In this document: positions 15,563-16,015 of the stretch, piece by piece
How the letters are laid out: every line of letters starts with the position of its first letter
Numbering within the stretch: position 1 is the stretch's first letter
IMG/VR virus record: IMGVR_UViG_2529293239_000006
Span: 1 to 23,370 of that record
Reading direction: 5' to 3' (one strand)
DNA: 23,370 nucleotides
DNA from: a virus
Taxonomy: Duplodnaviria > Heunggongvirae > Uroviricota > Caudoviricetes
Program-made: the position numbers and the translations under genes
The notes under the pieces: model-generated
Databases searched by the model: none
What the model was told of the DNA's origin: nothing
Seen by the model: the letters and a program-made list of their open reading frames with translations, nothing else

Positions 15563-16015
15563 TTAATGTTGCTGTTTATAACGCATATAAAAATTAATAA
15601 ACCACTCTCCCCGACATTCAACGCGTTGCTGCTTAACTGTCTGAAAACCATAACGTTCAAAAAAGGGTTTTGCGGTTATGCTTGCGTCCACCGTAAGTTC
15701 GGATTCAGACTTAATCAAAGGTTTTAACAAAGCGCTGGCAACCCCACGGCGGGTGTATTCAGGGTCAACAAATAACATATCGATATAGTGTTCAACGCAG
15801 GTAATAAAGCCGACCAGTTTTGCATTAATGACTGCAACCCGCACTTGTGATTTCGCGAGTTTCTCCTTCCAGCGAGATTCGTCAATCTGCGCCCAGGCGG
15901 CAATTTGTTGTGGTGAATAATGCTGACTGGCAGTCATCGTAACCGCTCTAATGAAAATAGCGCATAGTTGCTGAAAATCGCCAGGCTGATAGTCTCTTAT
16001 TTGTATGTTATTCAT
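15563..16015 (-). CDS. yafP: GNAT-family acetyltransferase YafP
   Basis: 150-aa translation is near-identical to E. coli YafP as I recall it ([37 protein letters not shown]...). Confidence 0.9.

Follow-up and report, generated by a model that had tools for sequence, protein, structure and literature searches.

The dinB-yafP junction without yafN-yafO in a prophage-bearing segment is one of two common Escherichia coli alleles

The window, that is the whole stretch of 23,370 nucleotides analysed (IMG/VR virus record IMGVR_UViG_2529293239_000006, positions 1 to 23,370), carries on its minus strand a gene for DNA polymerase IV (dinB) followed directly by a gene for a GNAT N-acetyltransferase (yafP). 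Coverage of the window by any one complete E. coli genome does not exceed 67%. The features at the junction of the two genes are as follows.

15563..16015, minus strand: yafP (GNAT N-acetyltransferase), intact, 150 aa (ORF table, NCBIfam, Pfam)
16012..16015, minus strand: ATGA stop/start overlap of dinB and yafP (direct reading)
16012..16018, minus strand: single copy of ATTATGA, the 7-bp direct repeat found around the yafN-yafO insert in four-gene alleles (alignment with the K-12-like locus; ten four-gene borders)
16012..17064, minus strand: dinB (DNA polymerase IV), intact (ORF table, NCBIfam, Pfam, identity to K-12 DinB)

Both gene names had been proposed by the initial annotation, and both products pass the cut-offs of their NCBIfam equivalog models: DinB with 543 bits (NF002677, DNA polymerase IV; cut-off 256) and YafP with 328 bits (NF007338; cut-off 146). 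Pfam places IMS, IMS_HHH and IMS_C domains in DinB and an Acetyltransf_10 domain in YafP. K-12 and window DinB are 100% identical over residues 3–351, and the two YafP proteins are 92% identical; the window yafP is nucleotide-identical to that of the two-gene E. coli strains 573 and GB089. The dinB reading frame (16012..17076) specifies 354 aa from its first GTG (17076) and 350 aa from the GTG at 17064, the start used by PGAP on the near-identical 5' end in GB089.

At the junction the minus strand reads ...CTG GGA TTA TGA ATA ACA TAC..., and the dinB stop TGA (16014-16012) lies over the yafP start ATG (16015-16013), as had been claimed. Five further ORF pairs of the window overlap by ATGA in the mechanical ORF table; this is the commonest kind of overlap and is not unusual in itself. 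With an intact Pol IV gene, an adjacent yafP on the same strand and an ATGA overlap, the pair has the gene layout of the two-gene dinB-yafP SOS operon of the CFT073 type.

The initial annotation had also given the K-12 order as dinB-yafN-yafO-yafP and had remarked that the toxin-antitoxin pair is missing here. That order was seen in a K-12-like genome, and the absence is borne out in two ways: tblastn of the window with the K-12 YafN and YafO queries (E<=1e-5) returned no homologue of either, and the 755-bp insert that separates dinB from yafP in K-12 is lacking. The adjacent antitoxin (YafN) and toxin (YafO) genes that define this type II module do not occur within the window. PMC3105422 credits the K-12 four-gene operon to McKenzie et al. 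2003 and its toxin-antitoxin pair YafNO to Singletary et al. 2009 and Zhang et al. 2009.

Alignment to the K-12 region, which had been suggested as a check, revealed one clean 755-bp indel at the junction (cassette at L001:4051-4805 in the K-12-like locus). The two operons have orthologous dinB and yafP genes at the same locus. In the K-12-like locus the insert lies between two copies of ATTATGA (GGATTATGA/TGTATAC...(yafN, yafO)...TTTATATTATGA/ATAACA in K-12, the slashes marking the borders) and yafP starts 9 nt past the yafO stop, whereas the window has a single copy (16018-16012), no yafN/yafO segment, and a yafP start that overlaps the dinB stop. A search for scars of insertion or deletion, also suggested at the outset, showed the 7-bp ATTATGA direct repeat at the borders of the insert, and neither IS sequence nor scar at the window junction.

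A set of 21 alleles was compared in detail. The insert measures 755 bp in all ten four-gene alleles compared, drawn from a range of E. coli strains and from S. flexneri and E. whittamii, and it is bounded by the ATTATGA direct repeat in nine of them; in the tenth the left border is ATTATAA, dinB stopping there with TAA and not TGA. The 4-nt overlap is shared by all ten two-gene alleles. Identical insert length and borders in ten alleles imply that the cassette was inserted once and that any loss was exact. For both genes to remain intact, an insertion into an overlapping stop/start has to duplicate at least ATGA, and a repeat is then expected. Removal of the insert together with one repeat copy from a four-gene allele gives the window junction; precise loss of yafNO by way of the 7-bp repeat would produce the junction GGATTATGAATAAC.

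The junction was surveyed across 5,426 complete E. coli genomes, as had likewise been proposed. The yafNO genes are present in 2,847, and the contiguous junction, counted with a 120-nt probe across the window junction, in 2,569; together these make 5,416, near the 5,418 genomes that hold the locus. The window junction is therefore one of two common E. coli alleles and not a lineage peculiarity. This agrees with Gutierrez et al. 2011 (Nucleic Acids Res 39:4192, PMC3105422), who found the identical dinB-yafP ATGA fusion in 40–50% of E. coli, with all of phylogroup B1 two-gene, A mostly four-gene, and B2 and D mixed, and who reported E. fergusonii as four-gene. The same authors proposed that the cassette was lost at least three times, by recombination between two ATGA sequences. 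They showed for CFT073 that two-gene dinB-yafP forms one transcription unit, and that a YafP-YFP fusion from this operon is induced by mitomycin C (SOS) and in stationary phase; they further proposed that YafP alters nitroaromatic genotoxins so that these become more cytotoxic and less mutagenic, with Pol IV relieving the toxicity. The two-gene allele, its polymorphism, ATGA junction, phylogenetic spread and YafP expression have thus been known since 2011. What is added here is the synteny in outgroups, the 7-bp repeat, the finding that the cassette is only shallowly diverged, and the recombinant nature of the window allele. For annotation, the absence of yafNO at this locus is to be taken as a normal allele, neither a gap nor an error.

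Like the CFT073-type operon (PMC3105422), the window has dinB and yafP with an ATGA overlap, lacks yafN-yafO, and has rtcB sequence downstream. It differs upstream, where the end of a phage-like element stands in place of the first ~4 dinB codons and of the native DNA between lafU and dinB, which holds the promoter and LexA box. Its yafP also differs from the B2 type, being of the 573/GB089 type and 92.7% identical to yafP of Nissle (B2).

The only purine-rich stretch before yafP is GGGA, which ends 2 nt before the ATG; the pair accordingly shows an ATGA overlap and no independent, well-spaced ribosome-binding site for yafP. The 2011 authors found no Shine-Dalgarno sequence for yafP either (PMC3105422), and the K-12 arrangement likewise has none that is well spaced. 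Because of the overlap and the want of a well-spaced Shine-Dalgarno sequence, yafP is most likely translated by termination-reinitiation at ATGA: ribosomes terminating on dinB would restart at the overlapping ATG, which would tie YafP output to the translation of Pol IV. In the four-gene form YafP would instead follow the translation of YafO, since 9 nt separate the yafO stop from yafP. For the two-gene operon the 2011 authors spoke of 'frameshifting' (PMC3105422); as yafP has a separate start codon, reinitiation is the simpler reading.

How the two alleles arose can be put together as follows. The dinB-yafP pair would have come first; the yafNO cassette would then have been inserted once into the overlapping junction, duplicating ATGA; since then slippage or recombination between the 7-bp repeats would repeatedly have removed it, and both states would also have passed between lineages by homologous recombination. 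Taken with the commonness of the two-gene operon and the probable coupled translation of YafP, this is the best overall explanation of the locus, to which we assign a probability of about 0.88.

The initial annotation had offered two origins for the window junction, that the lineage never acquired yafNO or that it lost the pair precisely, and these are the right alternatives. An exact deletion and the original state have the same sequence, and the junction alone cannot tell them apart. We regard a deletion in the ancestry of the window haplotype as moderately probable. The other possibility, to which we give somewhat less than even odds, is that the ancestors of this haplotype never carried the cassette, the two-gene overlap being the original enterobacterial state and yafNO a later insertion carried among Escherichia lineages and species by homologous recombination in the conserved flanks of dinB and yafP.

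The outgroups bear on both. Yokenella regensburgei has a syntenic yafJ-dpaA-dinB-yafP-pepD-gpt region and Klebsiella sp. MISC125 a syntenic dinB-yafP-rtcB-prfH-pepD region, each without yafNO, and in both YafP passes the equivalog cut-off. As in the window, the two genes are adjacent, with the junction spacing of two-gene E. coli; unlike the window, the dinB stop is TAA and YafP is only 56–64% identical, and in Yokenella the yafP ATG stands 2 nt after the dinB TAA and does not overlap it. The two-gene layout is by this synteny older than the yafNO cassette, and the retained spacing is what would be expected had the window haplotype kept the original state. The same holds for E. ruysiae and Escherichia sp. 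MOD1-EC7003, which are two-gene with ATGA; E. whittamii is four-gene. These states come from a scan of species-representative genomes that gave 16 loci, among which E. fergusonii, E. albertii and Salmonella were not returned; three loci (L007, L017, L018) were left out for fragmented, low-identity DinB/YafP matches suggestive of frameshifts. The state of E. fergusonii was taken from PMC3105422, and the four genes reported there speak against a haplotype that never carried the cassette.

The divergence of the cassette itself was examined at synonymous sites. Among the ten four-gene alleles mean dS is 0.21 for dinB, 0.12 for yafN, 0.042 for yafO and 0.15 for yafP. Between K-12 and E. whittamii the synonymous differences amount to 8/144 in the cassette and 75/344 in the flanks (p=5e-6), and in four other deep pairs the cassette and flanks differ with p<=5e-4; overall, the synonymous divergence of the cassette is 3–5 times below that of the dinB/yafP flanks. 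At the nucleotide level the cassettes of E. whittamii and E. coli are 98% identical and the flanks 93.6–93.7%. Base composition does not explain the low cassette dS, since yafP and the cassette have the same G+C content, about 43%. The cassette therefore coalesces more recently than its flanks, a pattern that points to exchange between lineages and species, fits poorly with vertical inheritance from before the diversification of Escherichia, and leaves room for an ancestral two-gene state in the window haplotype. A further reading, to which we give less than an even chance, is that the published history, in which the four-gene operon is ancestral in Escherichia and was followed by at least three deletions, is incomplete, the overlap being ancient and yafNO a single later insertion that has moved between lineages and species through homologous recombination. 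Were this so, many two-gene alleles, possibly including that of the window, would never have carried yafNO.

The flanks argue in the other direction. Neighbour-joining trees, one of dinB and one of yafP, mix two-gene with four-gene alleles, and at the variable sites within 200 nt of the junction three families of flank haplotypes can be recognized, each with both states. The table of variable sites contains no SNP within 200 nt of the junction that is associated with the state of the cassette, so that linkage could not settle gain versus loss; spread of the cassette on recombination tracts predicts hitch-hiking flank SNPs, and to that extent their lack counts against a window haplotype that had never held yafNO. 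No variable site within 200 nt separates two-gene strain AVS0578 from the four-gene strains APEC O18 and CRE287, and the APEC O18/CRE287 cassette is about 2% diverged from other cassettes. Identical flanks with opposite states are most simply read as a de novo deletion, and AVS0578 would then represent a recent exact deletion on the APEC O18/CRE287 haplotype. The four-gene flanks nearest to the window haplotype, those of S. flexneri and KTa008, likewise favour a past deletion over a cassette that was never there.

Two strains show other ways in which the toxin gene is lost or inactivated. Escherichia sp. E1V33 (L008:2620-3010) has a three-gene dinB-yafN-yafP arrangement in which yafO alone is deleted and yafN is an orphan. 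The ends of this deletion lie in the microhomologies AACTTAT and AATTTAT, so deletion by microhomology does happen at the dinB-yafP locus. In the four-gene strain E. coli CB7286 (L029:1698-2096) yafN is intact and yafO, which has an internal stop, is annotated as a pseudogene; such a stop is another route to inactivation of the toxin.

The window allele was compared with its nearest relatives along its length. Over nt 37-1013 its dinB has the identical sequence in the four-gene strain HCM-25C-3. From dinB nt 874 onwards, across all of yafP and the next 260 nt, it agrees with the two-gene strains 573 and GB089 except for one private synonymous SNP in dinB and one downstream substitution. The window allele is by this comparison a recombinant, with a crossover 40–180 nt upstream of the junction. 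Its mosaic structure indicates that the window inherited a widespread two-gene haplotype, without an event of its own. A breakpoint so near the junction in the window/HCM-25C-3 pair is also in keeping with spread of the cassette through its flanks and with a window haplotype that never received it.

Insertion sequences are prominent around the operon. The following features concern its downstream side and the borders of the segment in which it lies.

13372..14689, plus strand: IS3-family element (IS1203/IS629-like), copy A, at the left border of an inverted segment (self-BLAST, target duplications, NCBIfam IS3 transposase)
15081..15344, minus strand: 5' remnant of an rtcB-family gene, cut by IS66-family sequence (sub-threshold Pfam RtcB match of 22.6 bits, gathering cut-off 27; synteny with GB089/573; 260-nt match to 573)
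21633..22948, minus strand: IS3-family element (IS1203/IS629-like), copy B, at the right border of the inverted segment (self-BLAST, split target duplications)

With at least three IS3-family copies and IS66 fragments in the window, and with the dinB-yafP segment inverted between IS copies, one might regard the junction as an artefact of assembly or rearrangement, or as an IS-mediated deletion of yafNO in this genome only, but this is extremely improbable: the junction is base-for-base that of 2,569 complete E. coli genomes and holds no IS sequence or scar, yafP and the 260 nt downstream are as in 573/GB089 bar the one downstream substitution, and the nearest IS ends (14689 and 19393) lie more than 1.3 kb off on each side. 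IS-mediated loss of yafNO was rejected for the reason that the junction is the standard one.

Copies A and B are in inverted orientation and 99.6% identical by self-BLAST; a third IS3-family element (19393-20597) has a transposase matched by both Pfam and NCBIfam. The two halves of an HK97-type capsid gene abut different IS copies, each with the trinucleotide GTA, and the two halves of an IS66 element likewise abut different copies, each with AAC. These swapped target-site duplications show that the segment 14690-21632, including dinB-yafP, was inverted by recombination between the IS copies, and the inversion accounts for the phage genes that flank the operon left and right. Downstream of yafP, an IS66-family tnpA fragment (14679-15029) interrupts the rtcB-family gene after ~70 codons, and prfH and pepD, which come next after rtcB in other E. 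coli, are not in the window.

Positions 1-13371 and 20600-21632 of the window belong to a myovirus-type prophage with a relative in many E. coli, for example the O103:H2 strain PV16-126. Its genes include those for tail sheath, tube, tape-measure, baseplate J and DNA-circularization proteins, an HK97-type capsid and a prohead protease, and IS elements interrupt its head region.

Almost all E. coli genomes cease to match the window at the dinB start, upstream of which lie a Dit-like gene and a truncated tape-measure gene. The features of this phage-like element are listed below.

17050..17064, minus strand: attR-type junction, in which element sequence GTG AAG ATT AT is joined to native dinB TCATGTGGATATGG, with the crossover near 17054-17055 (alignment of the K-12 attB, GB089 attL/attR and the window)
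17065..17122, minus strand: non-native dinB upstream region, the right end of the phage-like element, with a TATAAT hexamer and a LexA-like box (alignments with K-12, GB089 and APEC O18; motif search)
17123..17914, minus strand: Dit-like phage tail/baseplate gene, the last gene of the element (Pfam Dit_like)
18051..19382, minus strand: tape-measure gene of the element, 5' truncated by the IS3-family element at 19393-20597 (Pfam TMP_3)

The Dit-like gene is named 'phage baseplate protein' by PGAP in GB089, APEC O18 and UTME-13, and the tape-measure protein has 443 aa in the window against 688 aa in its GB089 homologue. In GB089 the whole element, ~11.5 kb, stands between lafU and dinB (L006:35930-47560), its integration point lying within the opening codons of dinB, and at its left end lies a large serine recombinase with Resolvase, Recombinase and Zn_ribbon_recom domains. 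The left junction in that strain consists of the native dinB promoter and LexA box and ATG CGT AAA ATC AT, followed by element DNA; this leaves a 9-codon dinB stub and then CTGGATAAATATACAG directly before the recombinase ATG (L006:36066-36081). The right junction provides a TATAAT hexamer, the box ATGTATAAATATACAG, a GTG start and the codons K-I-I, by which dinB is rebuilt. The arrangement suggests a promoter swap that, through candidate boxes at the two ends, may keep both dinB and the recombinase under SOS control.

In the window the native dinB promoter and LexA box CTGTATACTTTACCAG are absent, and the replacement upstream region has TATAAT and the LexA-like box CTGTATATTTATACAT, with one mismatch (plus strand 17078-17093). 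The loose LexA pattern CTGT-N8-ACAG, allowing one mismatch, has 8 matches in the window where chance predicts 8.1, and the box in front of dinB is on that account only a candidate. A scan of 15300-17400 for consensus promoters and terminators showed no full sigma-70 site before dinB, and no more sites in total than in shuffled sequence.

The junction of the element with dinB is rare: only two of the 5,426 complete E. coli genomes share it, the two-gene strain GB089 and the four-gene strain APEC O18; as it occurs with both kinds of operon, the element is independent of whether yafNO is present. The literature was searched for a serine-recombinase element that attaches in dinB, with no relevant result. 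The dinB-yafP junction has low value as a discovery, and the additions made here slightly sharpen a small question, namely how a toxin-antitoxin cassette on the chromosome gets into an operon, is kept there and is lost from it; the serine-recombinase element in dinB may be of more interest. The LexA-like boxes at its two ends, one before the rebuilt dinB and one before the recombinase ATG, share ATAAATATACAG, and at the left junction the native SOS promoter of dinB is now directed into the recombinase gene.
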